DNA from: Nanobdellota archaeon
GTDB taxonomy: Archaea > Nanobdellota > Nanobdellia > Pacearchaeales > GW2011-AR1
NCBI GenBank assembly: GCA_030704765.1
Contig: JAUYDD010000067.1
Location: 1 to 34,244, forward strand
Direction of reading: 5' to 3'
Length of the DNA: 34,244 bases
In this document: piece after piece, positions 1-34,244 of the stretch
Numbering within the stretch: the stretch's first letter is position 1
How the letters are laid out: every line of letters begins with the position of its first letter
Program-made: the position numbers and the translations under genes
The notes under the pieces: model-generated
Told to the model about the DNA's origin: nothing
Database searches by the model: none
The model's input: only the letters and a program-made list of their open reading frames with translations

Positions 1-141
1 AAATTTCTGAGCGCACCCAAAAAACTTCTGAAAGTTTTTTAGTGTGCTCCAAAATGCCTTCTCTTTCTATCCATTAAAATAGATAGGTATGAGAAGAGCA
101 TTTTGGACATCTTAAAAGATGAAGTTTATTTTCCGACATAA
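1..141 (-). repeat. Modular multi-hairpin intergenic element, copy A (truncated by window start)
   Basis: Hairpins aaaaaactt-ctga-aagtttttt, ccaaaatgc..gcattttgg and catctt-aa-aagatg; ends ttccgacataa like the copy at 34244 (tctcgacataa at 2423); 17-40 is identical to 8417-8440. Confidence 0.85.
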
Positions 142-867
142 TCAATTTTCTTCTAATATTTTTTTCAATTTAAAAGTAAAATTTATTGTTCGTTTTATTA
201 GTTTGAATCTTGACTTAAATCCGAAATTCCAAGCACTATGGCCATGCAATCTCTTCCCAAAATATACTGGAAACCTAATTACAATGTAACCATTGGATTT
301 AGCAAGATAATAGGCATATAAGTCGAATGAAAAATCTTCAGGAGGGTTTTTTATTAATCTTAAAAAATCTTTATGGAAGATATTTGGTTGAGCATTTATA
401 TCATATAAAAATTTCTTTAAAACCAAGGTTTCAAAAATGGACATTCCAAAAGTGAAGAATCTGTCAGAAAAAGATCTTCCATATCTTTTTCCTTTAATAA
501 ATGTCTTCTGAGGATTATCATTGGATTTTATCATTTCAAAAGCTTTAATTGTGTCTTTTGGATCTGTTTGTAAATCTGCATGTGTATGGCAAATATATTT
601 TCCTTTTGCAGATGAAAATCCTTTATATACTGCAGCACCATAACCTGGTATCTTTTGAAAAACTGACCTAGCAAAAGGATACTTTCGTCTTTTTAACAAT
701 TTTTTCAATACTTCTTTTGTATTATCATTTGAATTATTATCAACAAGGATCAATTCTGTTGTCTTTAATAAATTCCCATTTAAAATCTCCTTGAATTTAT
801 CTAAAAGAAAAGGCATATTTTCAGCTTCATTATAACACGGGATTATTATAGATAATTCTTTTTTCAT
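142..867 (-). CDS. GT2 glycosyltransferase, polyprenol-phosphate (DPM-synthase-like) type
   Basis: SIIIPCYNE, LVDNNSND, GYGAA, HADLQTDP, IKGKR, SFDL motifs. Confidence 0.9.
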   Translation of the reverse strand: MKKELSIIIPCYNEAENMPFLLDKFKEILNGNLLKTTELILVDNNSNDNTKEVLKKLLKRRKYPFARSVFQKIPGYGAAVYKGFSSAKGKYICHTHADLQTDPKDTIKAFEMIKSNDNPQKTFIKGKRYGRSFSDRFFTFGMSIFETLVLKKFLYDINAQPNIFHKDFLRLIKNPPEDFSFDLYAYYLAKSNGYIVIRFPVYFGKRLHGHSAWNFGFKSRFKLIKRTINFTFKLKKILEEN

Positions 868-1688
868 TTTTCAAAATACTTTTTCCATATTGGAAGAAGT
901 CTTTTTTCTTCATTTGAAATATCAGGAGGGGGAATACCATATTTTATTATGAACTCTATTTTTTCATAATCATGCAAATCATCGGGTTTTCCCCAACTAA
1001 CATATAAATCTACATCAAATATAATTGTTTTTTTATTTAATTTTTGTAAAAATTTAGGGACTGCGTCAACATAAAACTCATTGTTAATCTTATAATTTTC
1101 CTTAAACATGAGTTCAACAGAATCTATAAAATCTTTTGCTTTTTTAAAATAAAAAGTAGCTACATTTGAATGATCATAAAAAGGATCATCAGATACAGGG
1201 ATTTTGATAGAAATATCTTTTATTGTCTCCTGATCATCCTCAAGTTTGTACCATCCCCAAGCAGTTGGATTTCTCCTCAAGATCTCTCTTTGTGTAAAGG
1301 TCCATATAATGCAGCTTACATCGTCTCTTTTTTTTAATTGTTCAAACTTCTCTTCATTATATAAAAAACCACCATCACAAGATGCAATAAACAATTCTTC
1401 TTCTGGATTTATTAAGTGTTTTGCTATCATACAGCTTCCAGCTTGCCCTATTGGTGCAGGATCTACTAAAAATATAGCCTCAGGAATTTCTTTTCTTATT
1501 AACTTATCAATACCATAATCAAAATGCTCTTCTCTCATAACAAATACCCATTTGTCAGCTTTTGGAAGATCCCTTATTACTTTTATTATCATTGGAACTC
1601 CAGAAACAGATATAAGCGGTTTTGATAGCTTATAGCCTGCTTGGCTGAACCTTGTTCCTAGACCTGCCATGGGTATTAAATTCATCAT
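864..1688 (-). CDS. Sugar-phosphate nucleotidyltransferase (NTP_transferase family)
   Basis: IPMAGLGTRF..GY..SKPLI signature, ASCD, NNEFYVD, WGKPDDL; overlaps the GT2 start by 4 bp. Confidence 0.85.
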   Translation of the reverse strand: MMNLIPMAGLGTRFSQAGYKLSKPLISVSGVPMIIKVIRDLPKADKWVFVMREEHFDYGIDKLIRKEIPEAIFLVDPAPIGQAGSCMIAKHLINPEEELFIASCDGGFLYNEEKFEQLKKRDDVSCIIWTFTQREILRRNPTAWGWYKLEDDQETIKDISIKIPVSDDPFYDHSNVATFYFKKAKDFIDSVELMFKENYKINNEFYVDAVPKFLQKLNKKTIIFDVDLYVSWGKPDDLHDYEKIEFIIKYGIPPPDISNEEKRLLPIWKKYFEK

Positions 1689-1718
1689 GTTTTAAGAAAA
1701 ATAAAAGGATATTTATAC

Positions 1719-2165
1719 TTATTGCTGTTTTAAAGCAAATATTTCCCTAGTATAATCATAATCCTTTTTTAATAAAGGACAATCAGGATTTCTTTTTTGA
1801 AATTTACTTGCATGCTTAATTATAGTGTCTCTTAATTCTAAATCTGTTGATAGAACATAACCGGTTTTATGATGCATATTTGATAAAATACGAGCTGAAG
1901 CATTAGCTGTTGGAATATAACCGTATATATCAGTTCTTGGTGGAAGATTTAATGCATTTGCTATAACTTCTGTTGGATCTGTATCCCAGGTTTTCCAATC
2001 TGGTTGACAATTAAAACCTATTGTTAATTTTTCTAAATCACTAAATCCAGGAACATTTTCTTTTGGTTCAATAAAGTTCCTAAATACCTGCATTGCAAAT
2101 ATTCCTGCTCCTCCTACTGGAACCCTTTCTATATCTAAACCTTGTTGTTTCAGATATGCTTCCAA
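1719..2165 (-). CDS. Hypothetical protein (TTG start)
   Basis: 148-aa ORF filling the gap, with a TATA-like sequence upstream; no recognisable motif. Confidence 0.6.
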   Translation of the reverse strand: MEAYLKQQGLDIERVPVGGAGIFAMQVFRNFIEPKENVPGFSDLEKLTIGFNCQPDWKTWDTDPTEVIANALNLPPRTDIYGYIPTANASARILSNMHHKTGYVLSTDLELRDTIIKHASKFQKRNPDCPLLKKDYDYTREIFALKQQ

Positions 2166-2195
2166 TAGATTATATATTATATTTCAAGAATTAAA

Positions 2196-2423
2196 ATAGG
2201 ATATCAAAAAAATTTCCTGAAATCAAAAAAATCTTTCATAAGATTTTTTGGAACATTCAAAATCTTTTAGAGATTTTGAAGTAATCGCCTACTCCATCCT
2301 GAAGGATGGAGTTTGATTGGCGATTTTTCTGATTCGGAAATTTTTAGGATGCTCGAGAATTGAAAACTGTAACATTAGCTACGACCACATGATAAATCAT
2401 GAGGTTTTCAATTCTCGACATAA
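2196..2423 (-). repeat. Modular multi-hairpin element, copy B (with 60-bp internal insertion 2223-2282)
   Basis: Near-identical to 34084-34244 apart from the insertion and a different inner module in the terminal arm; actccatcc-tgaa-ggatggagt perfect stem; tcgagaattgaaaac..gttttcaattctcga arms. Confidence 0.92.
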
Positions 2424-3851
2424 CTAAGATTCTGTTATGCTTTCTTTATCTTTAATAAGATAATGATGCGATTCTGCTTTTATTGTTGCTGCTTTATCTG
2501 AAAATATATATTCTATCATTCTGCAATAATGGACTACATTTTCAAAATTATGATGTTTAGAAGGATTACAAGGAAACAAATGTCTTTTAGACCAATATTC
2601 ATCTTTTAAAAGCTCTGCACCATAAGTTATCGCATATAACTCAAAATTATTATATACTTCGCTTCCAGGAGTTATAAATAAAGGAGTATAGATAATAGTT
2701 CCAATATAATCCTGATTTTTTAATAGAAAATCTAAAGTTTCCCTAAGAGTATCGGGTGTTTCTCCAATATAGAATATTATATTGAACTTTACTACTAATT
2801 CAGGATATTTTGCAATTTCCCTAATTAATTTTTCTGCTCTTGCAATATAATATTTTGGGTCTGCTGATTTATTTATCCTTTTTAATATTTCAATGCTTCC
2901 AGACTCAAAACCTACTGTCAAAACTCTCAAACCTGCATTATAAGCTTCAGGTAAAAAGATTTCCCAATTAGAGTCAACTGAGGTTTGTGTTGACCAAGTG
3001 ATATTTTTTTCTTTCAGGATCTTTATTTGCTCTGTTGCTATTTTTGGACTCATGCCAAAATTAGAAGTCAATAATGCCAAGGTTATATTTTTTCCCCAAA
3101 GATTAACTATTTGATCTAATTCTTCTGAAAATAGAGACATAGGTTTAAAAGTGACTTTACATCCATATAAATTTTCATTTAAACAGAATTTACATTTTTT
3201 AGGACAACCCCTGCTTTCTTCAATATAAGGGGTAAACTGAGATATTTCAGGATATAAAGAATAATCCAGTTTAGGTAATTCTTTCAGTCTATCTGAAAAT
3301 TCTCTAGCTATATGAAGTTCCCCATCTTCTTTCATAAATGAAATTCCCTTGATAGAAGAATAATCTTTTTTATCTTTAGTTAATAACAGCTCCATTGTAA
3401 TTTCCCCTTCTCCATGAACCAATATATCTAAATTATTTGTTTCTTTAAAAACTGTATCTCCTAAATAAGTGCAATGTTCTCCTCCCATAACAATTAAACT
3501 AGATGGAGAATTTTTTCTTGTTATTTCTAAACATTTCAAGCTTTCTATATAATCAAATGCAGTATTATTGCTTATTCCAATAATTTTTGGAGTCTTATTT
3601 TGAAGCTCTTTTTCTATTTTAGAATAATTGTGGTCAACTGAAGTGTCTATTATTTTTACTGAAAATCCCTTGGATTTCAGATAACTAGCGATAGAGAGTA
3701 TGCCTGAGCTTATAATTGAAAACTTGAAACTTTCATCTCTAAAAAAAGCTAAAGGAGGTGTTTCTGTTAAATAAGGAGGGTGGATAAACAAAACATCATA
3801 ATCATATTTATCTTTAATGGAATTTTCATCAATCAGGTTAGGGGTCATCAT
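2424..3851 (-). CDS. Cobalamin-binding (class B) radical SAM protein
   Basis: N-terminal B12-binding-like domain (GILSIASYL, IVMGGEH, GEGE); SRGCPKKCKFC = CxxxCxxC; VGFESGS. Confidence 0.9.
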   Translation of the reverse strand: MMTPNLIDENSIKDKYDYDVLFIHPPYLTETPPLAFFRDESFKFSIISSGILSIASYLKSKGFSVKIIDTSVDHNYSKIEKELQNKTPKIIGISNNTAFDYIESLKCLEITRKNSPSSLIVMGGEHCTYLGDTVFKETNNLDILVHGEGEITMELLLTKDKKDYSSIKGISFMKEDGELHIAREFSDRLKELPKLDYSLYPEISQFTPYIEESRGCPKKCKFCLNENLYGCKVTFKPMSLFSEELDQIVNLWGKNITLALLTSNFGMSPKIATEQIKILKEKNITWSTQTSVDSNWEIFLPEAYNAGLRVLTVGFESGSIEILKRINKSADPKYYIARAEKLIREIAKYPELVVKFNIIFYIGETPDTLRETLDFLLKNQDYIGTIIYTPLFITPGSEVYNNFELYAITYGAELLKDEYWSKRHLFPCNPSKHHNFENVVHYCRMIEYIFSDKAATIKAESHHYLIKDKESITES

Positions 3852-3966
3852 AAACTAAAGAAAAAGATATAGGTTTTTAAACATTATTATAAACCCTGAC
3901 ATAAAAAGGATGATTAACTTTTGCATAAATCTAAGGATTAAATTCATTACAATAAAATATTATAGT

Positions 3967-4051
3967 AACTAAAATTTATACCGAAATAAATTTCAGTTCC
4001 TAAATAGTAAAGGAATAAATTTATCTGAAAATTTATTTCCTTTCCTATAAT
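3967..4051. repeat. AT-rich double hairpin (possible degenerate member of the hairpin family, or terminator)
   Basis: aact-aaaatttat..ataaattt-cagtt and aaaggaataaattt-atctga-aaatttatttccttt, directly after the stop of the 2H gene. Confidence 0.5.
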
Positions 4052-4684
4052 TTAAATCAAAGGGTATTTTTTTATAAGTTTTAAACTATCATCCTTGTCA
4101 TCTACTAAATAAACATTAAGGGAAATAATATTATAATTTCCTTTAGGACATAAGTCTTTTATTTTATTAAATAAAATTTCAAATTTATTATTATCGATTG
4201 TTGCAAGAGAAATATGCGGTTTAAATATATTTCCAATGTAAGGAAATCCATATTTGATGGTGTTTTTTCTTTCTATATCCCCTAAAGATTCATAAGAATC
4301 TTTATATCTTTTAATTATTATGGGATTTCTAAAAGATTGCAGATGATCTATTACTTGCTTTTGTATTCTTCTTATCATATCTACATTTTCTTCTATAATA
4401 TTACACGCCAAGGTAATTTTATTTATGTTCTTTTCTTTAAAAATAATCCAATCAGAAATTGCTATTTGTATTTTATTTGTATCTTTTTTAATTTTATATA
4501 TCAAATCTTCTAATTCCTTATCCCATTCAGATATATCTAAAAAATCTGCATGATATATTGAAAGATGAGGTTCATCATCTAAATATAATTGATTTCCTAT
4601 CAAAGATTTTATGATTATTTTTAATCCTTTTATTTTACTAGATATAATCTTATCAGGTTCTAATAATATGCCATAGGTTACCAT
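4052..4684 (-). CDS. 2H phosphoesterase (2'-5' RNA ligase/cyclic phosphodiesterase fold)
   Basis: Two HxS motifs: EPHLSIY and KPHISLA. Confidence 0.8.
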   Translation of the reverse strand: MVTYGILLEPDKIISSKIKGLKIIIKSLIGNQLYLDDEPHLSIYHADFLDISEWDKELEDLIYKIKKDTNKIQIAISDWIIFKEKNINKITLACNIIEENVDMIRRIQKQVIDHLQSFRNPIIIKRYKDSYESLGDIERKNTIKYGFPYIGNIFKPHISLATIDNNKFEILFNKIKDLCPKGNYNIISLNVYLVDDKDDSLKLIKKYPLI

Positions 4685-4727
4685 TTTTATTAAATATTTA
4701 TCCTAAGGATTTGATATTCATTAATAT

Positions 4728-5366
4728 TCAATTGTTTTGAAAATTTTTTAGTATCCTCCTTTTTTGTTCTTCAGGACCTATATAATCTGCATGACATTCT
4801 TTCAAGTAAAAATAAATAGGTTCAAAATGAGGTATACTAATCTTAAACCATTCTTTCATTGAAATCCCTAAGGAATGTCCCAATGCTGTTCTTAGAACTA
4901 CGTTATGACTACATATGGCTATAGATTTATCAGGATAATTTTTTAAACCTTGGATAAAATTTAAATAACGATTGAGAACGTCCTGACTATTTTCTCCATT
5001 TGGAAATCTCGGGTCTTCGCCTCTTTTCCATGCATCAAATAATTGAGGATATTTTTCTTGCGCTTGTTTTAAATATAACCCATCAACATCACCATAATCG
5101 ATCTCTAAAAGATTAGAATCTGTTATTATTTTATTTTCTGTTAATAGTTGTAATGTCTGTATGCATCTTTTTAATGGAGAAGAAATAAATAAAGTACATC
5201 CAGCTATTCCTTTTTTAGTTTTTTCTGTGGAATCAGGAGACGAAGGCATTATGGAAGGATCCATTCTACCTAAAAATTTTACACCTAAATCTTTATTAAG
5301 AATATTTCCTCCGGTTTCAAGATGTCTTAAAAAAACTAATTTCTTCTCTAAATTTTCTGTTTTCAT
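4728..5366 (-). CDS. Histidine phosphatase (phosphoglycerate-mutase-like superfamily)
   Basis: FLRH, SSPLKRCIQT, LEIDYG, FPNGEN, CSHNVVLR. Confidence 0.9.
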   Translation of the reverse strand: MKTENLEKKLVFLRHLETGGNILNKDLGVKFLGRMDPSIMPSSPDSTEKTKKGIAGCTLFISSPLKRCIQTLQLLTENKIITDSNLLEIDYGDVDGLYLKQAQEKYPQLFDAWKRGEDPRFPNGENSQDVLNRYLNFIQGLKNYPDKSIAICSHNVVLRTALGHSLGISMKEWFKISIPHFEPIYFYLKECHADYIGPEEQKRRILKNFQNN

Positions 5367-5369
5367 TTT

Positions 5370-7883
5370 TTATAAATTTTTTAATATTTCCTTAATCTGA
5401 TTGTCAGTTAGTTCTATATAAAGCCTACTATTTTTAGTTAAAATAAATCTTATTGGTTCAAAATCAGGGATATTTAGTTTATACCATTCTTTCATTGGAA
5501 TTTTTAAATAACTTCCTATTAAACATCTTAAAACAACATTATGGGTGCAGAGGGCTATCTTGTTGTTTTTTATATTTTTTATATTTTTTAAAAAACTATA
5601 GAGTCTAAGTAAAACATCTCTTTGGTTTTCTCCATTTGGAAACTTTGGATCGTTGCCAAATTCCCATTCGTCTATAATTTTTGGATAATTTTTTATTAAA
5701 TAATCCAAATCTTTTCCATCTAATTCTCCGTAATTTATTTCGTTTAAACGATTATCGAGAGTTATATTCTTTTCCGTTAATAATGAAAGGGTGTTTTTGC
5801 ATCTTAAAGATGGGGAAGAGAAAAATATTTCATAGTCAGATAGGATATTTTTTAGATTATTTATTTCTTTTTTATCAGGATAAATTAATTCAGGGTTTGA
5901 TTTTTGCCCGATAAATTGATTTTCATAAGCTTTTGTTTTTACATGCCTTAGAAATATTATCTCTTTATTAGAATTGTAAAAATAATCTTTAAATTGAGAT
6001 TCATAATCAGATAAAAAAAATTCAATATGTTTTAATATATTTTTTATAGAATCGTAGTTTCTTCTTTTTTTAATTTTTATTAAATCGTTTATAAATTTTT
6101 TATGTAATTCTTTATTTTTTGGAAAAATTTTAAAATACGCATCCATAGCTTCATTAATATCATAATCTTTATTTTGCCTATAGTATAATTTTAATAAATT
6201 AGACATCAAGAAACGCATAATATGATAAGAAAATTCTATCCTGTCCCTTGAATCCATTAATTTATAATCTTTTTTTTCAATAACCTTGTTTTTTTGGATA
6301 ATATATTTTCTATAAGATAATTTATTTTCTTTTATTTCAGAAAGATATTCTTTAGAACTTCTTCTAGAATCAAAAAAATTAGAAGGTTGCAAATGATAGA
6401 CCTTATATAATTCAGACATAGATTTCTTAAAAAAAATCCCTGAATTTTGCCAATCATAACAAGTAAAAGGGCTTTTTATACAATGGTCAATATGGCTTTT
6501 GATATCGTATAGCATTATATGAAAGACAATATTGTCTTTGTTGAATTTTAACGGGCCTAAAGAAGGATTTAATATGACATTATAACCATATTTTGATTCT
6601 ATTTCTTTTTTTATTTTTTCAAAATTTTTAATAACAGACTCGAATTTGTCTTTAGATAATTCATCTAAAATTAATACAATATCAACATCATTTATACCTT
6701 CTATTCCTGAATATTTTGAAAAAGAACCAACAATATTTCCAGATTGTATAAAATCTAAATTTTCTGTTAAATCTCTTATTTTTTTAATAATATCTTTTCT
6801 AAGTTCATTTTCAATATTCCTGTATCTTGAGCTAGTTTTTAATTCTAAGAAAGAAGTTATGGGATCGTCTGATGATAAGATACCTGAAGATGAAACTATA
6901 TATTTTGCATTTATTTTTCCAATATTTGTTGGTTTAACACCTCCATCAAATATTATCTCAAAGTTGTATTTTTTCTTGAATCTATTCAATCTATTTACTT
7001 TTTCTATTGATTCAGTATTAAATATCTGTCCGGATTTTCCAAGTTCATCAATACCCATTACTTGAACAAAATCTATATAAGGAATGTATTTTATTATATC
7101 CTCTATTTTTGAATCTGTTTTTAAACATAATCCTACTTTCTTATTTAAAGACCGGCATAATCTTATTACATCGCTTATATTTTCATCTATCTCAATATGA
7201 AAAGTTATAGAATTTACATTTTTGTATAATTTCTTTATCCAGACTGAAGGATTTTTTGACATTATATGAAGTATTTTCTTAATTACCCAAGCCTTATTTA
7301 TCTCCTTAATTAAAGAAAGATCTATTTCAGGTGCTGAACTATTAAATGATTTATCTATTAAATCTATATGGACAAAATCAGCATAATATCTTATTCTAGA
7401 ATATATCTGATTAATGTCTTTATTTTTATTTAAATAAACAGCTATGCCTACTTTTTTAACAAAATCAAAAGTAATATTTCTATGTGCTGTATAACTTAAC
7501 ATAAAAATTATTGCAGAGGTAACAAATCTTAAAGTTGCGTAACCCAGGGGGATTTTTTCCCTTAATACAGCAATCAAGCCTAAATTAAGAATAAAAGCAA
7601 TTGTTGCTATAGCTAAAAATATAATGAAAGTCCTTCTATTTTTTGATTTTGGAACATGAAAATTAAGTCTTGCATTTAATATAAATCCTAAAGTTACTCC
7701 TATTATAAAACCTATGATAACTTTTAATATAAATGGTATATTATAAACTAATAAATATTTTGCTATAATAACCTCTGTTCCTACTGCAATAAGACCTATA
7801 ATTATATAATTTATAAGATATTGGAACCTATATCTTATAAATCTTAAATTTTTTATTATATTTTTTATATAAGAGGTTACCAT
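5370..7883 (-). CDS. Multidomain fusion: GtrA-like + ribulose-phosphate 3-epimerase + Pol-beta-type nucleotidyltransferase + helical region + histidine phosphatase
   Basis: 4 TM helices at aa ~25-135; RPE motifs HIDLID, LHIM, TFHIE, VMG..GKSGQ, FDGGV; NTase VGSF..NDVDIVLI; phosphatase FLRH, SSPSLRC, PNGEN, THNVVLR. Confidence 0.8.
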   Translation of the reverse strand: MVTSYIKNIIKNLRFIRYRFQYLINYIIIGLIAVGTEVIIAKYLLVYNIPFILKVIIGFIIGVTLGFILNARLNFHVPKSKNRRTFIIFLAIATIAFILNLGLIAVLREKIPLGYATLRFVTSAIIFMLSYTAHRNITFDFVKKVGIAVYLNKNKDINQIYSRIRYYADFVHIDLIDKSFNSSAPEIDLSLIKEINKAWVIKKILHIMSKNPSVWIKKLYKNVNSITFHIEIDENISDVIRLCRSLNKKVGLCLKTDSKIEDIIKYIPYIDFVQVMGIDELGKSGQIFNTESIEKVNRLNRFKKKYNFEIIFDGGVKPTNIGKINAKYIVSSSGILSSDDPITSFLELKTSSRYRNIENELRKDIIKKIRDLTENLDFIQSGNIVGSFSKYSGIEGINDVDIVLILDELSKDKFESVIKNFEKIKKEIESKYGYNVILNPSLGPLKFNKDNIVFHIMLYDIKSHIDHCIKSPFTCYDWQNSGIFFKKSMSELYKVYHLQPSNFFDSRRSSKEYLSEIKENKLSYRKYIIQKNKVIEKKDYKLMDSRDRIEFSYHIMRFLMSNLLKLYYRQNKDYDINEAMDAYFKIFPKNKELHKKFINDLIKIKKRRNYDSIKNILKHIEFFLSDYESQFKDYFYNSNKEIIFLRHVKTKAYENQFIGQKSNPELIYPDKKEINNLKNILSDYEIFFSSPSLRCKNTLSLLTEKNITLDNRLNEINYGELDGKDLDYLIKNYPKIIDEWEFGNDPKFPNGENQRDVLLRLYSFLKNIKNIKNNKIALCTHNVVLRCLIGSYLKIPMKEWYKLNIPDFEPIRFILTKNSRLYIELTDNQIKEILKNL

Positions 7884-8278
7884 TTTTTGTTTTTAAAGAC
7901 GAAAATTTTTATACTAAAAAAATTAATTAGAGTTGTTATAGGAATAATGGATGCTGTTGATATAAGGGGATTTAATCCGATATAATCTACTAAGATTTTT
8001 AATAAAAGATTCATAATGCCTAAGGTGGTAAGATTCACTAAAAAATATTCTATAAGATATCTTACAGATTTGTATTTTGAGTTAAATGTCAACAATCTAT
8101 TGAAAAAAAATCCTACAAATGCCCCTATTACAAAAGCTATTGTAGTAGATAAGAGATAATAGATATTTAAAAAGTGATATAACAGTAAAAATATAATGTA
8201 ATATAATAGTGTTGTTTCTAACCCTATTAAACAAAACTTTAAAAACTGCTTAGTTACTTCTCTTTTCAATAACCTCAT
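7877..8278 (-). CDS. GtrA-family membrane protein (lipid-linked sugar flippase-like)
   Basis: QFLKFCLIG, FFFNRLLTF, NFFSIKIFVF, 4 TM; start moved to ATG (MRLLK) at 8278. Confidence 0.85.
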   Translation of the reverse strand: MRLLKREVTKQFLKFCLIGLETTLLYYIIFLLLYHFLNIYYLLSTTIAFVIGAFVGFFFNRLLTFNSKYKSVRYLIEYFLVNLTTLGIMNLLLKILVDYIGLNPLISTASIIPITTLINFFSIKIFVFKNKKW

Positions 8279-8372
8279 AGAAGATATTTCCTTAGAATTA
8301 TTTATAAAGATTGTTGCAATCAAAAAAACTATGTACCACCACACCTTTTAAGGCGTTTTGTGGCAGGCACTT

Positions 8373-8492
8373 GTTTTTTGGATGACTTCAAAATTTTTCA
8401 GAAAATTTTGAGTGTTCCAAAAAACTTCTGAAAGTTTTTTTGGGCTAGAAAAAACTTTTGTGGTTTTTTCTGCACAGAAAATCCAATAAAAC
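8373..8492. repeat. Modular multi-hairpin element, copy C
   Basis: Outer imperfect IR gttttttggat/atccaataaaac enclosing tcaaaatttt-tcag-aaaattttga, ccaaaaaactt-ctga-aagtttttttgg and agaaaaaac..gttttttct. Confidence 0.8.
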
Positions 8493-8494
8493 CT

Positions 8495-8950
8495 CTAGTT
8501 AAGCGGTTCTTTATCTTGATTCTTATAATAAGTATATATTTGGGAGATTTTTGAATATAAAGGGATATTTAGATATATAAGATCTATATAATCCAAGACC
8601 ATATGAATTCCTATGCCTATGCTAATCCAAATAAATAAATCATTCATATAAGAAAGTATAACTAAAATGGTCCAGAATTCAAAACCATGAAGAATCAAGA
8701 TGGGGTTTTTAAATTTTTTTCTTATATTTCTTTCATAAGAAAGCCATTTTATTCTTCTTTTAACAAACCATGCATAAGAATTTTTTAGATTTATATCTTT
8801 TTTAACAAGTATATAATAAAGATAATGATCTACATCAATTAAAAATGAAGCTAAAAATACTAATACTGATTGAAATAAAGTTATATTAAATATTGAATAT
8901 AATAATAAAGATATAATTCCTCCGATTAATATATGCGTTTTAGGATACAT
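8495..8950 (-). CDS. Membrane-bound metal-dependent hydrolase (YdjM/DUF457-like)
   Basis: THILIG, DVDH, LHG, HMVLD with TM helices; ATG start at 8950 preferred. Confidence 0.7.
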   Translation of the reverse strand: MYPKTHILIGGIISLLLYSIFNITLFQSVLVFLASFLIDVDHYLYYILVKKDINLKNSYAWFVKRRIKWLSYERNIRKKFKNPILILHGFEFWTILVILSYMNDLFIWISIGIGIHMVLDYIDLIYLNIPLYSKISQIYTYYKNQDKEPLN

Positions 8951-8964
8951 AAAATAAAGAAATA

Positions 8965-9897
8965 TCAAATGCTTTTAAAATATGCTATTGTCTTTATTAA
9001 TCCTTCATCTAATAATATTTCAGGTTTCCAAGAAAGTTTTTCTAATGCAAGAGTTATATCAGGTTTTCTTACTTTTGGGTCATCTTCAGGCAAAGGATTA
9101 AAAATTAGATTTGAATTAGAACCAGTCATCTTCAATATTTTTTCAGCTAGTTCTAGGATTGTAAATTCATTAGGATTTCCAAGATTAACTGGTCCAATAA
9201 AAGCTGGATTGTTCATCATTTTATGCAAACCTCTAATTAAATCTGATACATAGCAAAATGAACGGGTCTGATTTCCAGTTCCATAAATAGTTATGGGTTT
9301 ATTATCTAGAGCTTGAATAATAAAATTACTAACAACTCTTCCATCATTAACATCCATATTCGGCCCATAAGTATTAAAAATCCTAACAATTCTTATTGGT
9401 AGATTATAAGAGCGATGATAATCCATAAATAAAGTCTCTGCTACTCTTTTTCCTTCGTCGTAACAGGCCCTAGGCCCTAGCGTATTTACATTTCCTTTGT
9501 AACTTTCTTTTTGAGGATGCTCTAAAGGGTCTCCATAGACTTCAGAAGTAGATGCTTGCAATACTCTTGCTCCATTTAATCTAGCAAATTCCAATACATT
9601 AATTGCTCCTATTGTACTTGCTTTAGCAGTTTCAATTGGATCAAATTGATAATGTATTGGAGAAGCTGGACAAGCTAAATTATAAACCTGGTCAAAATCC
9701 CCTTTTATTTTCAATGGCCTTGTAATATCATGAGGTATTACTTTAAATCTTGGATGACTCATTATCTCTTTTAGATTCTTTCTTTTTCCTGTAAAAAAAT
9801 TATCAAGACAAACAACTTCATCTCCATTTTCTTCTAATAAATATCTGCATAAATGTGATCCAATAAAACCTGCTCCTCCTGTTACTAGTATTTTCAT
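8965..9897 (-). CDS. UDP-glucuronate decarboxylase (UDP-xylose synthase), extended SDR
   Basis: [54 protein letters not shown]. Confidence 0.93.
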
Positions 9898-9947
9898 AAT
9901 TCTAAATATATTAAGATATTTATAAGGATTATTGTAGAAAAACTTCC

Positions 9948-11453
9948 TTAATCTTTTACTATTCCTTTTATTATATCTGCAAATGCAGGTCTTGTAATTA
10001 AAACACCTATACTAATGCCAATAAGAGTAGTTAATGCAAATCCTTTTAATAAACCTGCTCCTGCCCAGAATAATGGAAGCATTGCTGCAAATATAGTGAA
10101 GAAAGCTCCAAATACAACAAAAAACGCGCTTTTTATTCTTTCTTTAAGACTTGTTTGTTTATCAGAAACAGCTTCATCAATAATCACTATCTGGTCATTC
10201 ACTCCTGTTCCCATACCAGCTATTATTCCTGCAATAGAAGGAGCATCAAGGTTCCATTTAATCAATGCAGCTATACTAAGAGTAATAAATGCTTCTGAAA
10301 ACATAGTCATTATTACAGCAAGAGTCACTTTTATTCTTCTATATTTCACAAACAAAGCTATAGATACTACAATAAAAACTATTAAAGCAAGTAATAAAAT
10401 ATTACTAGTAAATTCTCTTCCTAATGCTGGAGAGATTGTATCAATCTTTACTATTTCTAATTTATATGGAAGACTTCCTGTTATTAAAATAGTCTGAAGT
10501 TTTTTCATATTATATATAGAATCATCATAAGCTTCTTTTCTTGTTGTGCCTTTTCCTGCTCCTTGTATGGAGATTTGAGTTGTTGCTCTTCCTTTGAGGT
10601 CTTTTGATATGGATAATGAATCAACTAATTTATCATCTAAATACAAATCTAATTTTTTGCTTAGATACTCTGGATCAGTCTCATCTAAAGAAAGATTAGA
10701 AGTTATTTTTGCTTGTTTTTCAGCTGCTTTTTCTGATAAGGTTATAGCAAACCTAAAACTGCATAATTCTTGCCCTTGATAACTGTCACACGAGTAAATT
10801 CCTGCTTGATCTCCTGTTCTTGCTACATAAGTTATATCTTCTCTTCCACCAATAAATACAGTATCATTACCTATTTTTGCTTCAAATTTACCTTGCTTTG
10901 ATACAAGATCTGATAGATCAGCAGGAGTTGCTCCTGCTAATTCAATTAACATATAATTATTTCCAGAAAGGTCAGAAACTGTCCTGACAGTCACATCTGA
11001 AATACCAAATTCATTCAACCTGTTGCTTGTTACAGATATCAAGTCTTCCATCTCAGACCGGGATAAAGCAACTTCAGGCTTAACTAAAGCTCTTGCTCCT
11101 CCTGATAAATCAAGACCTGTCTTTATTTTTGTCTTTGGAATATCAAATACGGTAATTTTTGGAGCTTCATTATCATATAGTATAATTTCACTATCTTTTA
11201 TTCCAATTTTTATACTTGTTTTATTTTCTGAAGGATATACAGCACCGACTAATCTAGTATAATCTGCTAAATTATTAACTGGTTCTCCATTAATAGAAGT
11301 GATTATCATAGAGGGCTTTAGGCCCTGGTCATAGGCAGTAGAATTCTTTTCAACGCTCTTTATCAATACTCCTTTTTCAAAACTAGGAGCAATAACTAAT
11401 GCTGCTGATAAAAGTGCTATTATTAATACTATTATTCTCCAAGTTGTTTTCAT
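9948..11453 (-). CDS. secD: Protein translocase subunit SecD (with N-terminal PDZ-like segment)
   Basis: [39 protein letters not shown]. Confidence 0.93.
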
Positions 11454-12343
11454 TCTATTTTCTTATGATCACAATACCATTTAATGATACTAGCATTAGT
11501 CAGCCATGTATTGAAAATGTCTGCAACTAGACCAAGGGAAAGAATAAAAAATATCTGCCTGAAAGAATCTGGCAAGGAAGATACTACAAAAAATGCAGGT
11601 AAAACAGCTATTAATGCAGTAGTTGTCATAAATATTCCTGTTTTAAATGCTCCATATATTCTTTGATTCAATTTTCCCCCTCTTTTTCTTAAAGCCCTTG
11701 TTGTCAATAATATGTCTGTATCAACTGAATAACCAATAAGCATTAAAAAAGCAGCTATACCTGCTGCTGAAATCCTTATACCTAAATAATCTATTAAAGC
11801 GAGAGGCATAACTATATCTGAAAATGCTGCAAAAATAACAGCGATACTTGGAGTAAAGGTCCTGAACAAGATAAATACTACACATGACATTAATATAAAA
11901 GAAATGAACAAAGCTATAATCAATTGTTTGTAAAAACTCTGGCTTAAAGATGGACCTGTAAATTCTATATTTGAATTCTCTTCTGTTAATTTATAATCCA
12001 GAATCTTTTCTATACTTGGTTTCAATTCTTCTGGTTTTGCAGAACTTTCAATGATAAAAGAAACAGGCTCACCAGTCCTTATATCTGTAAGTTTTCTTGT
12101 GACAAGGTCAGTATATTCTTTTTTTAATTCTGTCTCTATCTTTACCATGTCTATATCTCCTTTTAAAGTGATTGTTGTTCCACCTGTTAAAGAAGAATCC
12201 CTATGCATAATATCTCCATGAACAGAATAAAAATAAAATATATAAACCAAAGATATAATCATGACAGCAACAGGTATTAAAAGCATCTTTTTATGCCATC
12301 TATCATACCAATCTTTTCTATTTGTTTCAAATGTCTCTTCCAT
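11450..12343 (-). CDS. secF: Protein translocase subunit SecF
   Basis: LTGGT, GPSL, IAAFLMLIGYSVDTDILLT, ADIFNTWLTN; start at MEETF because the longer ORF runs through tRNA-Gly. Confidence 0.93.
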   Translation of the reverse strand: MEETFETNRKDWYDRWHKKMLLIPVAVMIISLVYIFYFYSVHGDIMHRDSSLTGGTTITLKGDIDMVKIETELKKEYTDLVTRKLTDIRTGEPVSFIIESSAKPEELKPSIEKILDYKLTEENSNIEFTGPSLSQSFYKQLIIALFISFILMSCVVFILFRTFTPSIAVIFAAFSDIVMPLALIDYLGIRISAAGIAAFLMLIGYSVDTDILLTTRALRKRGGKLNQRIYGAFKTGIFMTTTALIAVLPAFFVVSSLPDSFRQIFFILSLGLVADIFNTWLTNASIIKWYCDHKKIE

Positions 12344-12441
12344 TTTATAGATTAGGTAAGAAAAATTGGTTTTATAAGTCTTTTTGTTTAATGGAGCCGT
12401 ATAGAGTAGAAAAAATAAGAGGATAAAAAAAATAAGAAAAA

Positions 12442-12512
12442 TGCGCGGGCCGGGAATTGAACCCGGGTCGTCTCGTTGGAAGCGAGAAATTCTACCACTA
12501 AACCACCAGCGC
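12442..12512 (-). tRNA. tRNA-Gly(TCC)
   Basis: GCGCTGG..TCTCG-CTTCCAA-CGAGA..CCGGG-TTCAATT-CCCGG-CCCGCGC-A; one U:C acceptor mismatch. Confidence 0.93.
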
Positions 12513-12623
12513 TTTAAATTTAAGTAATCTTGATACCTTTTTAAATGTTTTTTGTTAGCTGGTTTTAGGATCAAGAGTTTTATATGTTTGTTTAAACAAG
12601 TGTTTAAACAATCAAAAAATAAA

Positions 12624-12807
12624 GAAATTGCCTAAAAATTAGCAATCCCAACCGACCCAGAGGGTCGAGGTATTTGCTAATTTTTAGGCAATTTCAGTCT
12701 CCAAGAAAAACTTTCAGAAGTTTTTCTGGGCCATTCAAAATCTTCAGATTTTGAAGGTTTCAAATCTGCCGAGGCAGAGCCTCGGGGTATTAAACCCAGA
12801 TTTGAAA
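12624..12807. repeat. Modular multi-hairpin element, copy D (just 3' of tRNA-Arg)
   Basis: Perfect 22-bp IR 12624-12645/12674-12695; aaaaactt-tcag-aagttttt; ttcaaaatct-tc-agattttgaa; tttcaaatctg..cagatttgaaa enclosing ccgaggc-aga-gcctcgg. Confidence 0.88.
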
Positions 12808-12813
12808 ATAAAG

Positions 12814-14352: not shown

Positions 14353-14353
14353 A

Positions 14354-25477: not shown

Positions 25478-25503
25478 ATTTGATAGAGAATATACAAAAT
25501 AAT

Positions 25504-26724
25504 ATGTTAAGAGATTTTTTCTTTTTGTCTGTGAATAGTATGAAAAAAAGAAAGCTTAGAAGCTGGCTTACTCTCTTAGGAATTTTTATTGGAATTGCCG
25601 CTGTTGTTTCTTTAATTTCTATGGGCGAGGGATTAAGAACAGCTATAACTGGGCAATTTGCTTCTCTATCTTCAGATACTCTTACATTTACAAATGCTGA
25701 AACAGGATTTGGACCACCTGGAAGCACAGCAATTAAAAAAATCACTGATCATGATATAAAATTAATAGAATCTGTAAATAATGTAAAGATTGTAATTCCA
25801 AGGCTAATTAGAGTTGCAAAAATAGAGTATAATAAAATTATAGATTTTAGATATGTTGCAAATTTACCTGAAGATAAAGAAAAAATAGATTTTATCTATA
25901 CTAATATGAATATTAAAATAGAGGAAGGAAGATTATTAGGAATTAATGACCGTGGAAAAGTTGTTTTAGGAAATGATTTTACAACTACTGATAAATTTAA
26001 TAAAAAAATAAGGGTAGGAAGCAGGATAAAAATACAAGGCAAAGAATTTGAAGTTGTCGGAATACTAAAAAAAGCAAGCACTTTTACAATTAACAGTGTT
26101 GTTATAATGTTAGACAGTGATATGAGGGAGATTTTAAATATACCTAAAGATGAACATGATATAGTTGCAATCAGGGTTAATAGCAAAGATAATGTAGAAA
26201 AAGTTTCTTTAGACATAAAAGACAAAATAAGAAAAGATAGAAAAGAAAAAATAGGTGAAGAGGATTTTAATGTCCAGACACCATTACAGGCGCTCCAATC
26301 TGTTAATACAATTCTTGATATCGTAAATATTGTAGTTATTGGGATTGCTGCAATCTCTTTAATCATAGGAGGAATTGGAATTGCAAATACTATGTATACA
26401 TCAGTTTTAGAGAGGACAAATGAGATTGGAATAATGAAAGCAGTTGGAGCTAAAAATTCTGACATTCTGACTTTGTTTGTAATTGAATCAGGAATATTTG
26501 GATTAATTGGAGGTTTTGCTGGATCTTTATTTGGAGTCCTAATGTCTTATAGTGCTTCATCAAGTGCAAATAGCTTTTTTGGAGAAAATATTTTTAGTTT
26601 TCAAATATCCTGGCCATTAATATTTGCAGCTATAATATTTTCATTTTTAATAGGAGTTTTTGCAGGCTTAATCCCTTCTTATCGTGCAAGTAAATTAAAA
26701 CCTGTTGATGCATTAAGAGCATGA
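25504..26724 (+). CDS. ABC transporter permease (MacB/FtsX family)
   Basis: RSWLTLLGIFIG, GIANTMYTSVLERTNEIGIMKAVGA, KPVDALR. Confidence 0.95.
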   Translation: MLRDFFFLSVNSMKKRKLRSWLTLLGIFIGIAAVVSLISMGEGLRTAITGQFASLSSDTLTFTNAETGFGPPGSTAIKKITDHDIKLIESVNNVKIVIPRLIRVAKIEYNKIIDFRYVANLPEDKEKIDFIYTNMNIKIEEGRLLGINDRGKVVLGNDFTTTDKFNKKIRVGSRIKIQGKEFEVVGILKKASTFTINSVVIMLDSDMREILNIPKDEHDIVAIRVNSKDNVEKVSLDIKDKIRKDRKEKIGEEDFNVQTPLQALQSVNTILDIVNIVVIGIAAISLIIGGIGIANTMYTSVLERTNEIGIMKAVGAKNSDILTLFVIESGIFGLIGGFAGSLFGVLMSYSASSSANSFFGENIFSFQISWPLIFAAIIFSFLIGVFAGLIPSYRASKLKPVDALRA

Positions 26725-27938
26725 TTCAAGATTATTTTAAACTAGGCTTTGAAAATATAAAAAGAAAAAAATTAAGAAGCTCTTTAACAATAGTGGGGAT
26801 TTTTATCGCTGTCACAACTATATTTATTTTAATTAGCTTGTCTATTGGTTTAGATCAGGCTATAAAGGAGCAGTTTAGGCAATTAGGTACAGATAAATTC
26901 TTTATTATGCCAAAAGGCCAAGCAGGAGCGCCAGGTTCTGGAGGAGCTGTAGAATTAACAACAAAAGATGTAGCAGTTATTGAAAAAATTAATGGTGTAA
27001 AAGATGCTGTATATTTCAATGTAGGAAATGTAAAAATAGAATTTAAACAAAAAAACAGGTATTATATGGCTATTGGAATTCCTGATGATAACAGACTAAT
27101 GAAAGTCATGCTTGAAACTATGAATATAAAAGTAAATGAGGGAAGATTTTTAAAACCAGGAGATAATAAAAAAATTGTTTTAGGATACAATTACAAATAT
27201 GGGAACCTTTATGATAAACCCGTTAGAACCAGAGATAAAATAGAGTTAAATGATGTTGAATTTGATGTTGTTGGAATTCTTAGCCAGATTGGAAATTCTG
27301 CAGATGACCAGCAGGTCTATATTACTTTTAATGATGCAAAAGAACTGTTTAATTCAGGAGACAGAGTTGATGAAATAGTAGTACAAGTAAAAAGTGAAGA
27401 AGACGTTAATGCAGTTGCAGATAGTGTTAAAAGAAAGTTGATAAATTTTAGAGATGTTACTGAAAAAACAATGGATTTTACAATATCAACTCCCGAAGAG
27501 CTGTTAAGAAGTTTCGGGACTGTGTTAAATATAATCACTGCTTTTTTACTAGGAGTTGCTGCTATTTCTCTTTTAGTCGGAGCTATTGGAATTGCAAATA
27601 CTATGTATACATCAGTTTTAGAAAGGACAAAAGAAATCGGTGTAATGAAAGCAATTGGAGCTAAAAACTCGGATATATTAACTATATTTGTAATAGAATC
27701 TGGATTTTTGGGTTTAGTTGGAGGAATAATTGGAATTTTAGTTGGAATTGGAATTGGAAAGATAATTGAATATATAGCAATCACTAGCCTTAAAACAAAT
27801 CTATTGAGAATTGCTACTCCCTGGTATCTTATTCTAGGATGCATAATGTTTTCTTTTATAATTGGCGCAGTTTCTGGTTTACTTCCAGCACATCAAGCAT
27901 CAAAGGTCAAACCTGCCGATACATTGAGATATGAATAA
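26721..27938 (+). CDS. ABC transporter permease (MacB/FtsX family)
   Basis: GIANTMYTSVLERTKEIGVMKAIGA, KPADTLRYE. Confidence 0.95.
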   Translation: MIQDYFKLGFENIKRKKLRSSLTIVGIFIAVTTIFILISLSIGLDQAIKEQFRQLGTDKFFIMPKGQAGAPGSGGAVELTTKDVAVIEKINGVKDAVYFNVGNVKIEFKQKNRYYMAIGIPDDNRLMKVMLETMNIKVNEGRFLKPGDNKKIVLGYNYKYGNLYDKPVRTRDKIELNDVEFDVVGILSQIGNSADDQQVYITFNDAKELFNSGDRVDEIVVQVKSEEDVNAVADSVKRKLINFRDVTEKTMDFTISTPEELLRSFGTVLNIITAFLLGVAAISLLVGAIGIANTMYTSVLERTKEIGVMKAIGAKNSDILTIFVIESGFLGLVGGIIGILVGIGIGKIIEYIAITSLKTNLLRIATPWYLILGCIMFSFIIGAVSGLLPAHQASKVKPADTLRYE

Positions 27939-32875: not shown

Positions 32876-32876
32876 A

Positions 32877-33284
32877 ATGGAAAAAAATAAAACAACAATA
32901 AGCGGTAAAAGAAAGACATCTATTGCTAAAGCAACAATACTTGAAGGTAATGGAAAAATATGGATAAATAAAAGGCCGTATGAAAACCTGGATTTTTTTA
33001 GAAAACTAATGATTGATGAGCCTGTTGAGATAACCAAAAAAACACTCGGCCATTTTAATTTCAACATCTATGTCAATGCAAAAAGTGGTGGAAAAGAAAG
33101 CCAGATCCATGCATCAAGACTTGCTATTGCAAGAGCATTAGTAAAATTCACAGGCTCTAATGAACTGAAAAGAGCGTTTTTAAAATATGACAAAAACCTT
33201 CTTGTAGCTGACACTAGAAGAAAAGAAGCATATAAGCCCGGAGACTCTAAAGCAAGAGCGAAAAGGCAGAAGTCATTTAGATAG
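32877..33284 (+). CDS. rps9: 30S ribosomal protein uS9
   Basis: GKRKTSIAKA, LLVADTRRKE, ARAKRQKSFR. Confidence 0.97.
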   Translation: MEKNKTTISGKRKTSIAKATILEGNGKIWINKRPYENLDFFRKLMIDEPVEITKKTLGHFNFNIYVNAKSGGKESQIHASRLAIARALVKFTGSNELKRAFLKYDKNLLVADTRRKEAYKPGDSKARAKRQKSFR

Positions 33285-33330
33285 TTCTAATTAGGGTTAA
33301 TTTAAATAGAATTCAAAAAAAAATTAATAA

Positions 33331-34044
33331 TTATCCTGATGTAGAAGGTGCCATTAATCTTTGAGCTAATCCCTGAATCCTTTCTTTGTAGGAATCTATC
33401 ATTCTTTGGGCTGCTGTATAAGATTTCTCAACTGCATCTGCAGTTGCAATGGTTCTATCATATACCTCAGTTAGGTTTGGCAGATATCCTATTCTTCTCA
33501 ATCGATCATCATGAGTATTTGTTTCAGCATAAAAATGAAGCTTATCTTTATCTTCTATTAATTCAACGCCATTATTTGTAGCAAGATATTTTCGAGAAGC
33601 ACCACTTATCTCACTAAGAGCTTGTCTTAAAGCAATTAATTCTTCTGAACCTTCAAATTCTTCTAATGATTTATAAATATGTTTAGAACTGGCACTTATA
33701 TTACGAGCTATTGAAAAAGGGTTAGGATGCGCAAAATAAAGCTCAATTTCAAGAGTAGTATTTGGAAGCTTTGTTCCATTTAATAATACAAAAGGAATTT
33801 CTTTTCCATCATAAGATACTACTTTTAGAGAATCAGTTCCTAAATATTCTCCAAGACTTTTAAAAAAATCTCTTACAACATCTGCATCTCTTTGAAACAT
33901 TGATTGAGTTCTTATTGCCCAGTCTAATTCTCCAAGATTTAAAACTGATTTACCTGTTTTTGAAAGAGCAAATAACCATTCACAAAAAGCTTTATGGCCT
34001 GGAAGTGTTGGACCTTGCACACGATTCTCTATATTTTCTTGCAT
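33331..34044 (-). CDS. Hypothetical protein
   Basis: Long ORF; ATG (MQENI) ~30 bp after a TATA-like TATTTAAA; no recognisable motif. Confidence 0.7.
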   Translation of the reverse strand: MQENIENRVQGPTLPGHKAFCEWLFALSKTGKSVLNLGELDWAIRTQSMFQRDADVVRDFFKSLGEYLGTDSLKVVSYDGKEIPFVLLNGTKLPNTTLEIELYFAHPNPFSIARNISASSKHIYKSLEEFEGSEELIALRQALSEISGASRKYLATNNGVELIEDKDKLHFYAETNTHDDRLRRIGYLPNLTEVYDRTIATADAVEKSYTAAQRMIDSYKERIQGLAQRLMAPSTSG

Positions 34045-34083
34045 TAATAAAATATGAATACTTGATTTAAATATATTTCTAAG

Positions 34084-34244
34084 ATAGGATATCAAAAAAA
34101 TTTCCTGAAAAATCGCCTACTCCATCCTGAAGGATGGAGTTTGATCGGCGATTTTTCTGATTCGGAAATTTTTAGGATGCTCGGAAATTGAATGCAAGTA
34201 AACTACCTCATCTTAAAAGATGAGGTTTTCAATTTCCGACATAA
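34084..34244 (-). repeat. Modular multi-hairpin element, copy E
   Basis: ataggatatcaaaaaaatttcc..actccatcctgaaggatggagt..tcggaaattgaa..cctcatcttaaaagatgagg..ttcaatttccgacataa. Confidence 0.92.

Follow-up and report, generated by a model that had tools for sequence, protein, structure and literature searches.

The question raised by this locus is what kind of element forms five clusters of nested hairpins that share parts while no two are the same. The locus is a stretch of 34,244 nucleotides from a Nanobdellota archaeon of the order Pacearchaeales (assembly GCA_030704765.1, contig JAUYDD010000067.1). It is referred to here as the window and is the complete contig C226 of its source genome, G000. 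The original prediction, made from the letters of the window, flagged the five loci (copies A to E) and offered two readings: a REP/BIME- or PATE-like system whose units insert into each other, or a family of branched RNAs in 3' untranslated regions. Our analysis places the five loci in a family of double-hairpin units (hereafter, units), each with a first hairpin (H1), a second hairpin (H2) and three short sequence tags. These units are, with high probability, non-autonomous mobile selfish DNA. Every genome used in this study is an incomplete metagenome-assembled genome (MAG), and the completeness of G000 is 87.6%.

The family is much larger than was apparent from the window and is genome-wide. 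The G000 assembly contains 1,712,278 bases (1.71 Mb) in 244 contigs with 30.1% G+C. Relatives of a gene resident in G000 bear the names Candidatus Pacearchaeota, Woesearchaeota or Nanoarchaeota, and the genome is of the Pacearchaeota type, in keeping with the DPANN origin assumed in the original prediction. A blastn search of G000 with the five window copies gave 1044 high-scoring segment pairs, and the 9-nt hinge that separates the two hairpins, AGGATGCTC, occurs 270 times (164 + 106). A 14-nt form of the hinge occurs 262 times, compared with 0 for the reversed control. Sequence present at five or more copies amounts to 108,635 bases (6.3% of G000) distributed over 718 loci whose median length is 151 bp. 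These repeats represent 101 kb of the 340 kb outside the set of open reading frames (ORFs), a crude set, and thus 30% of the intergenic DNA. Perfect hairpins with a stem of at least 8 number 2178 in G000 and 308 after block shuffling, both counts being doubled alike. An all-against-all blastp comparison of G000 identified no multi-copy protein that reached three copies. Confinement of the modules to the five loci had been named as the outcome that would speak against the original prediction; the modules are clearly not confined to them, as they occur throughout the genome and in related DPANN genomes.

The order of parts in the unit, aligned within G000 and across 14 genomes and read on the window strand, is ATCAAAAAAAC - H1 - GTTTTTAGGATGCTC - H2 - GACAT, and the unit is 125-220 nt long. 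H1 is a long imperfect palindrome in which an outer stem surrounds a GC-rich inner hairpin, and H2 is an outer stem of the NNNAATTNAAAA type around an inner hairpin. The tags ATCAAAAAAAC, GTTTTTAGGATGCTC and GACAT are invariant in 21 aligned units from 14 genomes, while the stems differ. The rows of this alignment were 17 of the 28 printed copies from relatives and four from G000; copies with nested inserts, a minimal H2, the other H1 type or truncation at a contig end were left out. The tags are thus fixed across genera, while the stems drift yet stay complementary. Stem partners are paired in 97.0% of the alignment cells, compared with 82.1% after shuffling and 34-49% when the partners were slid. 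The shuffle control overstates the significance because the aligned sequences are related, but the slid control is unaffected by kinship. Changes on both sides are present in 22 of 43 pairs, and there are 133 double-change cells against 13 one-sided changes of the G-U type, eight of which fall in a single pair.

The near lack of G-U pairs suggests palindromic DNA. Stem complementarity is probably kept at the DNA level, either by selection on the hairpin or by templated correction of one arm from the other, and not by RNA function. The inverted states of hairpin tips described below and two loci that contain only H2 hint at arm-to-arm templated correction. These two loci (C115 near 3900-3971 and C144:16318-16390) have the flanks TTAT...ATAA, and the palindrome extends 6-8 nt into the flanks, so that they look as if one arm and its flank had been copied to the opposite side. 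Compensation by Watson-Crick changes only is also a warning that covariation in a repeat is not, by itself, proof of an RNA gene. Both termini of the unit have a complement in the hinge, with ATC facing GAT and GACAT facing ATG(C)TC, and RNAalifold drew the ATC/GAT pairing. Because the pairings between hinge and termini are invariant, covariation is no test of them.

All five window copies were found where they had been described, with revised borders (Table 1), and every module said to be shared between them was recovered. The hairpin AAAAACTT-CTGA-AAGTTTTT is common to A and C and occurs in D with the loop inverted. The pair CATTCAAAATCT..AGATTTTGAAG is common to B and D, CATCTT-AAAA-GATG to A and E, and a scaffold of 82 nt to B and E with 96% identity. 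As single-stranded DNA, the five copies fold with z values from -4.9 to -13.1, and none of 200 shuffles of each copy folds as well. Copy E is a canonical unit, with an H1 of the TTTCC type that holds one GC-rich inner hairpin, the hinge, an H2 of the GGAAATTGAA type and GACAT; the 20 matches to it listed in G000 have 97-100% identity over 138-151 nt. Copy B reads ATCAAAAAAA, H1, the hinge AGGATGCTC, an H2 of the GAGAATTGAAAAC type and GACAT, and the outer stem of its H1, AAAAATTTCC/GGAAATTTTT, surrounds three inner hairpins. Compared with E, it has an additional 60-nt two-hairpin insert in H1 (2223-2282), with an unambiguous junction, and this insert is present at 13 loci. In copy A, a nested element of two long hairpins (1-106) lies within the inner hairpin of H2, whose 3' half follows at 107-139 and ends in GACAT; the same nested form was found on other contigs. 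Copy C begins before its original border, and its H1 is complete though degenerate; no H2 and no GACAT end are present. Its AT-rich modules are of the same kinds as the hinge inserts elsewhere in G000. Copy D has no AGGATGCTC hinge and is located between tRNA-Gly and tRNA-Arg.

Table 1. Double-hairpin units of the window, and transposase or recombinase matches in the source genome G000
Feature	Location	Strand	Description	Fold and repeat data
Copy A	1-139	+	right part of composite unit, truncated by contig start	fold z = -6.5; repeat depth up to 46
Copy B	2203-2421	+	full unit	fold z = -10.0; repeat depth up to 237
Copy C	8319-8492	+	degenerate H1 (CAATG/CTTG type), hinge variant TGGATG, three AT-rich hairpin modules	fold z = -4.9 (8373-8492); repeat depth up to 99 (segment 8307-8492)
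Copy D	12611-12809	+	four-hairpin array, ATCAAAAAA start, terminal AT	fold z = -13.1
Copy E	34091-34242	+	canonical 152-nt unit at contig end	fold z = -10.5
Y1 (IS200-type)	G000		two intact genes (C107 and C134) and one fragment	
IS110-family gene	G000, C61:13994-14999		single	
DDE_Tnp_1	G000		ten matches	
Resolvase domain	G000		two matches	
IS91-type Y2 (Y2_Tnp)	G000, C164:512-1628		one gene	

The idea that units insert into each other and exchange modules, which formed the REP/BIME-like part of the original prediction, agrees with the nesting and reassortment seen across G000. H1 and H2 types are reassorted among copies. For instance, an H1 arm that ends in GATTGGCCCTTG is combined with H2 types GAGAATT (42 times), AGAAATT (64), GGAAATT (6) and GAGAATC (4), and one that ends in CTGATTCGGAAA with GGAAATT (37) and GAGAATT (10). 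Split alignments of canonical units against G000 identified 102 loci that bear inserts, and three insert sites recur. The first is the hinge: in every H2 subfamily, AGGATGC and TGCTC can be separated by a two-hairpin module of 54-60 nt (longer forms, 87-117 nt). The second lies in the inner hairpin of H2, just after CAT, where inserts of 108-185 nt read GTC-hairpin-GAGCAC-hairpin and thus correspond to an inverted unit. The third is the internal loop of H1, with the 60-nt insert that distinguishes B from E and that begins with the family's own TCAAAAAAA. In the predicted folds, each of these sites falls in unpaired sequence. Within one and the same context, a hairpin tip can be present in either flip state, as had been noticed for copy D. 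Metagenome copies have similar nesting, with mini-units of about 55 nt, and one complete unit interrupts an IS200-type Y1 gene (C59:1-260), of which the C-terminal third and the right-end hairpin remain.

The copies are recent: many are identical, and they are dispersed, nested, reassorted and absent from an orthologous spacer in relatives. The 182 complete H2 segments comprise 51 distinct sequences, the commonest of which occur 32, 18, 17, 17 and 15 times. The spacer that holds copy D between tRNA-Arg and tRNA-Gly is about 300 nt in G000, compared with 94 nt in genome G047 and 45 nt in G051, and the array is absent in both. The tRNA-Gly gene beside tRNA-Arg in G047 (L073:1796-1885) itself appears to bear an insertion or intron, and ARAGORN calls it a 90-nt 'tRNA-Ile(aat)'. 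In G051, only the 5' part of tRNA-Gly is recognisable (L074 from about 3216), followed by unrelated sequence.

Outside G000, the 14-nt hinge is present in 18 of 48 congeners, with 1-10 copies each, and in 21 of a sample of 300 other genomes of the order, where the reversed control gave two single matches. Bursts are seen in G000 (262 copies), in G159 of another genus (23) and in G078 of another family (8). An exact 17-mer scan of metagenome contigs identified at least 119 stretches. Of the 80 examined, 47 pass a strict test for both ends, 23 have the architecture by reading but are truncated or interrupted, and 10 are chance matches. All four 17-mer matches in viral contigs lacked the unit architecture and were chance matches.

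The ends of the unit bear on how it moves. Terminal inverted repeats are absent, as neither of the terminal tags, ATCAAAAAAAC and GACAT, is an inverted copy of the other. In G000, the base at -2 before ATC is A in 75% of 77 left ends; after GACAT, the base at +1 is A in 72% and T in 21%, and the base at +2 is A in 96%, of 170 right ends. In other genomes and metagenomes, A is found in 73% at -2 and in 92% at +2 (83 left and 78 right ends). The flanks thus follow the rule A-A-N | ATC...GACAT | N-A. Repeat borders taken from BLAST coverage are too blurred for classifying ends. The same base stands at -1 and +1 in 22 of 69 units, against 21.7 expected; this agreement is at the level of expectation, and therefore there is no duplication outside AT. 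Twelve head-to-tail junctions read GAC-AT-CAAAAAAA, although some may represent a unit and an A-rich flank instead of a second unit. Duplication of AT itself, with one AT from the target, is possible.

Neighbouring units also tend to point in the same direction. Where two neighbouring hinges share a contig and are separated by 400 bp or more, they are co-oriented in 69 of 98 pairs (binomial p = 7e-5), and the five window copies share one orientation though the genes switch strand at 18.8 kb. This polarity does not follow the genes. Relative to the gene on the GACAT side, 78 units have one orientation and 76 the other (28 of 182 have no gene on that side), and the split in tandem gene spacers is 22 to 21. 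Replication-linked, strand-specific insertion would produce a regional polarity of this kind, one that does not depend on transcription.

We tentatively favour a single-strand, hairpin-guided and strand-specific mode of movement of the HUH-like kind, with a confidence slightly short of even. This mode resembles that of IS200/IS605 and REP elements because the units lack terminal inverted repeats and target-site duplications, combine hairpins with tags, have a fixed junction dinucleotide, are inserted in loops and are co-oriented independently of genes. The element would move as folded single-stranded DNA, and an enzyme would recognise the hairpins and the three tags. Cutting would take place beside AT at both ends, with no duplication beyond AT, and insertion would be strand-specific, beside an AT exposed in single-stranded DNA. 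Insertion at such a site would explain both the nesting in loops and hinge and the shared direction of neighbours. The hinge, being complementary to both termini, could hold the two ends together. Taken as a whole, mechanism included, a double-hairpin selfish element is the best explanation of the data, and we consider it about as apt to be right as wrong.

Several findings weigh against the favoured mode. First, in an assembly fragmented into 244 contigs, co-orientation is only indirect evidence for strand specificity. Secondly, an exact empty site at strain level was not found in the Logan contigs or in the G000 assembly. Long matches between contigs of G000 at 85% identity or more contained no filled/empty pair, only composite units or duplicate loci, and no contig spanning an empty site was listed among the Logan contigs of four runs over window positions 1-14000, where contigs stop at units. 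One joint at 2222-2283, recorded as 'skips 60', was considered as an empty site and rejected, as it is merely the shorter H1 form of other copies. The AT rule therefore rests on flank statistics and nested copies, and nested loci are not independent insertion events because composites are copied as wholes. Third, MAGs are incomplete, and repeats and insertion sequence (IS) elements are often unassembled in them.

Lastly, the search for the enzyme gave no partner. None of the transposase genes of G000, including the ten DDE_Tnp_1 matches, is flanked by units. Against the RAYT model NF047646 (cut-off 80), the two intact Y1 proteins reach 30.7 and 33.2 bits, whereas both pass NF033573, the IS200 model; they are not RAYTs. 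The resident IS200-type elements have the left end TTTAAAG..CGCAAGAAATC-hairpin-GATGAATTGCG and the right end GGACGCC-hairpin-GGAGGATGTCAC (16 loci), which have only GGATG after the hairpin in common with the unit. Among the 48 congeners, 19 have Y1, 18 have the hinge and 7 have both, against 7.1 expected. In the order, Y1 was found in 5 of 21 hinge-positive genomes (24%) compared with a base rate of 76 of 300 (25%). The genomes in these counts are related and incomplete, so the counts are not independent and absences are not proof. Y1 was not found in four of five further multi-copy genomes: G159 (23 units, 88% complete), G078, G124 and G014. Within 2 kb of the units at 70 metagenome loci, no protein cluster occurred at more than two loci; an IS200-type gene was seen at two of the 70.

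Other searches gave similar results. That the window has no transposase, as first stated, holds for the 26 of 50 listed ORFs that were scanned, with the small ORFs at 28.7-33.3 kb outside the scan. The TnpB parts PF07282 and PF01385 had no match in G000. Rep_1 and Viral_Rep had no match in five genomes, a result of little weight because control genomes likewise lacked a match. By eye, the ORFs between neighbouring units look like ordinary genes. No known transposase can be tied to the units, and nothing supports a dedicated, linked enzyme.

The main alternative to the hairpin-guided mode is a circular intermediate that integrates by site-specific recombination at a 2-bp AT core, through a serine recombinase or an IS110/bridge-type enzyme, and leaves AT at both junctions. 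We regard it as improbable. It would account for AT at both ends without other duplication and for the sharing of one AT by tandem units at the 12 junctions, and the target consensus A-N-AT-N-A is similar to AC-AT-CA, the junction predicted for the circle. The IS110-family gene and the two resolvase-domain matches of G000 could supply an enzyme. However, the IS110 element on C61 and the unit have dissimilar ends, and the flanks of the IS110 gene are part of another repeat family. Five other unit-bearing genomes gave no IS110 match, G159 and G078 gave no resolvase match, and a palindromic AT core alone would not yield co-orientation. This alternative predicts a circle junction, GAC-AT-CAAAAAAAC, that is not flanked by two units.

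Just as improbable in our estimate is a satellite relationship of the PATE or REP kind, in which the resident Y1 (HUH) enzymes would bind H1 together with AGGATG and move the units in trans. The intact Y1 genes lend this some plausibility, as does the GGATG that follows both IS end hairpins (hairpin-GGAGGATGTCAC on the right and hairpin-GGATGAATTGCG on the left in the relatives shown), since the unit has H1-AGGATGCTC. The units also share hairpins at both ends, co-orientation and the lack of inverted repeats and duplications with elements of that kind. However, the left-end motif TTTAAAG..CGCAAGAAATC and the apparent TTTAAA target are absent from units, and Y1 and units are distributed independently in both congeners and order. 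In addition to the four multi-copy genomes without Y1 noted above, G013 (96% complete) has 18 unit matches and no Y1, and the failure of the Y1 proteins with the RAYT model counts here too. Thus the link to HUH enzymes, RAYTs or PATEs drawn in the original prediction is not upheld, and the search it proposed, for Y1, RAYT or TnpB genes flanked by the same hairpins, identified Y1 genes without such flanks and no TnpB parts.

A family of structured RNAs, or of cis-acting RNA signals such as 3'-UTR stabilisers or terminators kept by selection on RNA folding, is very unlikely. The folds are very stable and the covariation is strong, three window copies abut stop codons of minus-strand genes, and T-runs follow hairpins on both strands. 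However, the random orientation relative to genes argues against such a role, as do the spacer classes, which are near background (43 tandem, 17 convergent and 16 divergent among 76 hinges with genes on both sides; background 822, 232 and 224). The nearly G-U-free compensation better suits palindromic DNA, and the many identical copies, their patchy distribution across genomes and their nesting do not suit an RNA family. At the gathering score, Rfam 15 identified only 5S rRNA and tRNAs in the window; at E values up to 1, a weak, chance-level H/ACA match lies over copy C (28.6 bits against a gathering score of 100), with none for the other copies. The branched 3'-UTR RNA reading of the original prediction is thus abandoned.

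Rolling-circle transposition by the resident IS91-type Y2 transposase is the least credible of the enzymatic alternatives: its family was found in only 7 of 300 other genomes of the order, yet two of those seven (G078 and G232) carry the hinge, compared with 21 of 300 overall, and its end (a GC-rich hairpin, TTAA, CTTGAT) loosely recalls the GC hairpin and TTTGAT inside H1, but the unit flanks have no CTTG/GTTC-type tetranucleotide, Y2 was not found in G159, G014 or G052, and C164 holds no repeat at three or more copies. Readings as H/ACA-like, C/D-box-like or hammerhead-like RNAs, as introns of the bulge-helix-bulge type or as DNA uptake sequences were rejected, as they had no motif or Rfam support and did not fit the copy-number pattern.

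The hairpin-guided mode is also open to a more specific form, which is possible but doubtful. The units could represent a class of self-guided hairpin transposon in which the hinge GGATG(C)TC pairs with the 5' ATC and the 3' GACAT, so that the cut sites would be joined for an enzyme outside the tested families, possibly a nuclease or recombinase with a housekeeping role in these archaea. If true, such an element would have invaded many Pacearchaeota and Woesearchaeota lineages, nested in its own loops and grown to 6% of a genome under strong reduction. DPANN genomes are among the smallest and most streamlined known (0.4-1.6 Mb in the congeners), yet about 700 repeat loci make up nearly a third of intergenic DNA here. 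The family occurs widely in metagenomes from groundwater and sediment, and it combines sharp tags and a simple architecture, amenable to experiment, with no recognisable transposase. It therefore offers a direct starting point in the search for an unknown DNA-mobilising activity in archaea.

The units have consequences for assembly and annotation. Repeats occupy 318 of the 488 contig ends of G000 (two thirds). In the Logan contigs of the probable source run, k-mer depth is 500-1800 at units compared with about 14 in unique DNA, and these contigs break at units. Copies A and E lie at the window ends because the assembler stopped at repeats there. The units thus explain the fragmentation of such MAGs and can produce false gene starts and false tRNA calls. 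For example, ORF 7877..8344 enters copy C and ORF 33331..34095 enters copy E, so that repeats distort gene starts. The ORF at 11450..12574 (SecF-like, a mechanical call) overruns tRNA-Gly(TCC) at 12442-12512, and its TTG start is therefore an artefact.

Other repeats and features were noted. The flanks of the IS110 gene on C61 (region 13724-15260) recur 13 and 8 times in G000 without the gene, and about 85 nt of the right flank lie inside an H2 hairpin on C69:1-181. The pattern suggests that a satellite family derived from IS110 lands in double-hairpin units. A window repeat of another family at 3960-4057, missed originally, has a depth of up to 18; its TATAG...CTATA-like ends are similar to those of the IS110 satellite, a kinship that is only possible. 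A 57-nt repeat at 19676-19732, just after a NIF3-like gene, has about five genome copies (depth 5) and by eye is outside the unit family. The Y2 genes in DPANN archaea (C164:512-1628 and L243, on C83 of G078) have a GC-rich hairpin, then TTAA and the classical CTTG flank. The window also contains a lone 5S rRNA gene (16088-16202) beside tRNA-Leu(CAA), with no 16S or 23S rRNA gene, and two regions of tandem paralogues. At 4728-7883, the histidine-phosphatase domain of ORF 4728-5366 recurs C-terminally in an 837-aa GtrA / ribulose-phosphate epimerase / phosphatase fusion, with DNA repeats of 71-72% identity between the two domains. At 25480-27938, an adjacent pair of MacB/FtsX permease genes has 79% identity over 191 nt.

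Among known systems, bacterial REP, BIME and REPIN elements and mitochondrial repetitive hairpin and double-hairpin elements appear to be the closest functional analogues. The units do not have the properties that would place them among RAYT/REP elements, PATEs, MITEs, or IS110 or IS91 satellites. Like REP, BIME and REPIN, they are high-copy extragenic palindromes that are non-coding, form a mosaic of few hairpin types and linkers and carry short conserved tags beside drifting stems. REP elements also serve as landing sites for other IS elements, according to the available part of PMC1525189, and IS110-type right-end sequence is found inside an H2 here. A REP is described, in the available part of PMC3733652, as a GC-rich palindrome of 20-40 nt, one end of which bears a GTAG or CGTC tag. 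In contrast, units are several times that length, with two long palindromes and nested sub-hairpins, and have ATCAAAAAAAC, AGGATGCTC and GACAT in place of GTAG or CGTC. Unlike REP, they also have no RAYT and no linked single-copy gene, occur in an archaeal host and are patchy instead of vertically stable in distribution. A REP survey that includes archaea (RepRanger, PMC12306157) makes no mention of DPANN, a term with 0 occurrences in the part available.

The units resemble IS200/IS605 elements and their derivatives in the absence of terminal inverted repeats and target-site duplications, the hairpins at both ends, the insertion beside a short fixed sequence and the local strand bias; the hairpin followed by GGATG is a further likeness to the resident IS200-type ends. 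They differ from PATEs in that their ends do not match the left and right ends of a resident IS200-type element, nor does their distribution follow that of Y1. Like prokaryotic MITEs, which are sometimes nested, the units are short, non-coding and high-copy. However, no inverted repeat spans the whole unit, each half being its own palindrome, no duplication is seen beyond the possible AT, and no parent IS has the ends of the unit. A MITE-Tracker census (bioRxiv 10.1101/2024.01.18.576219) reports, in its available part, the highest archaeal MITE densities in DPANN, with 145.5/Mb in Altiarchaeum and 105.1/Mb in a Woesearchaeon. We found no description of the unit family in the literature; the supplements of that census, which lay outside the part consulted, may list this or related genomes.

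The repetitive hairpin elements of fungal and sponge mitochondria are single or double hairpins that invade intergenic DNA and are scattered in a manner that suggests repeated invasions, with no flanking duplications and no known enzyme in the part of PMC2800124 available. Unlike the units, they are organellar and GC-rich, and that part of the article reports no conserved hinge or tags. They have no sequence relation to the units, and the likeness is one of analogy only. Distinctive of the units, together with the lack of a candidate enzyme, are their nesting in themselves, their load in a reduced genome and a three-tag architecture that is invariant across genera.

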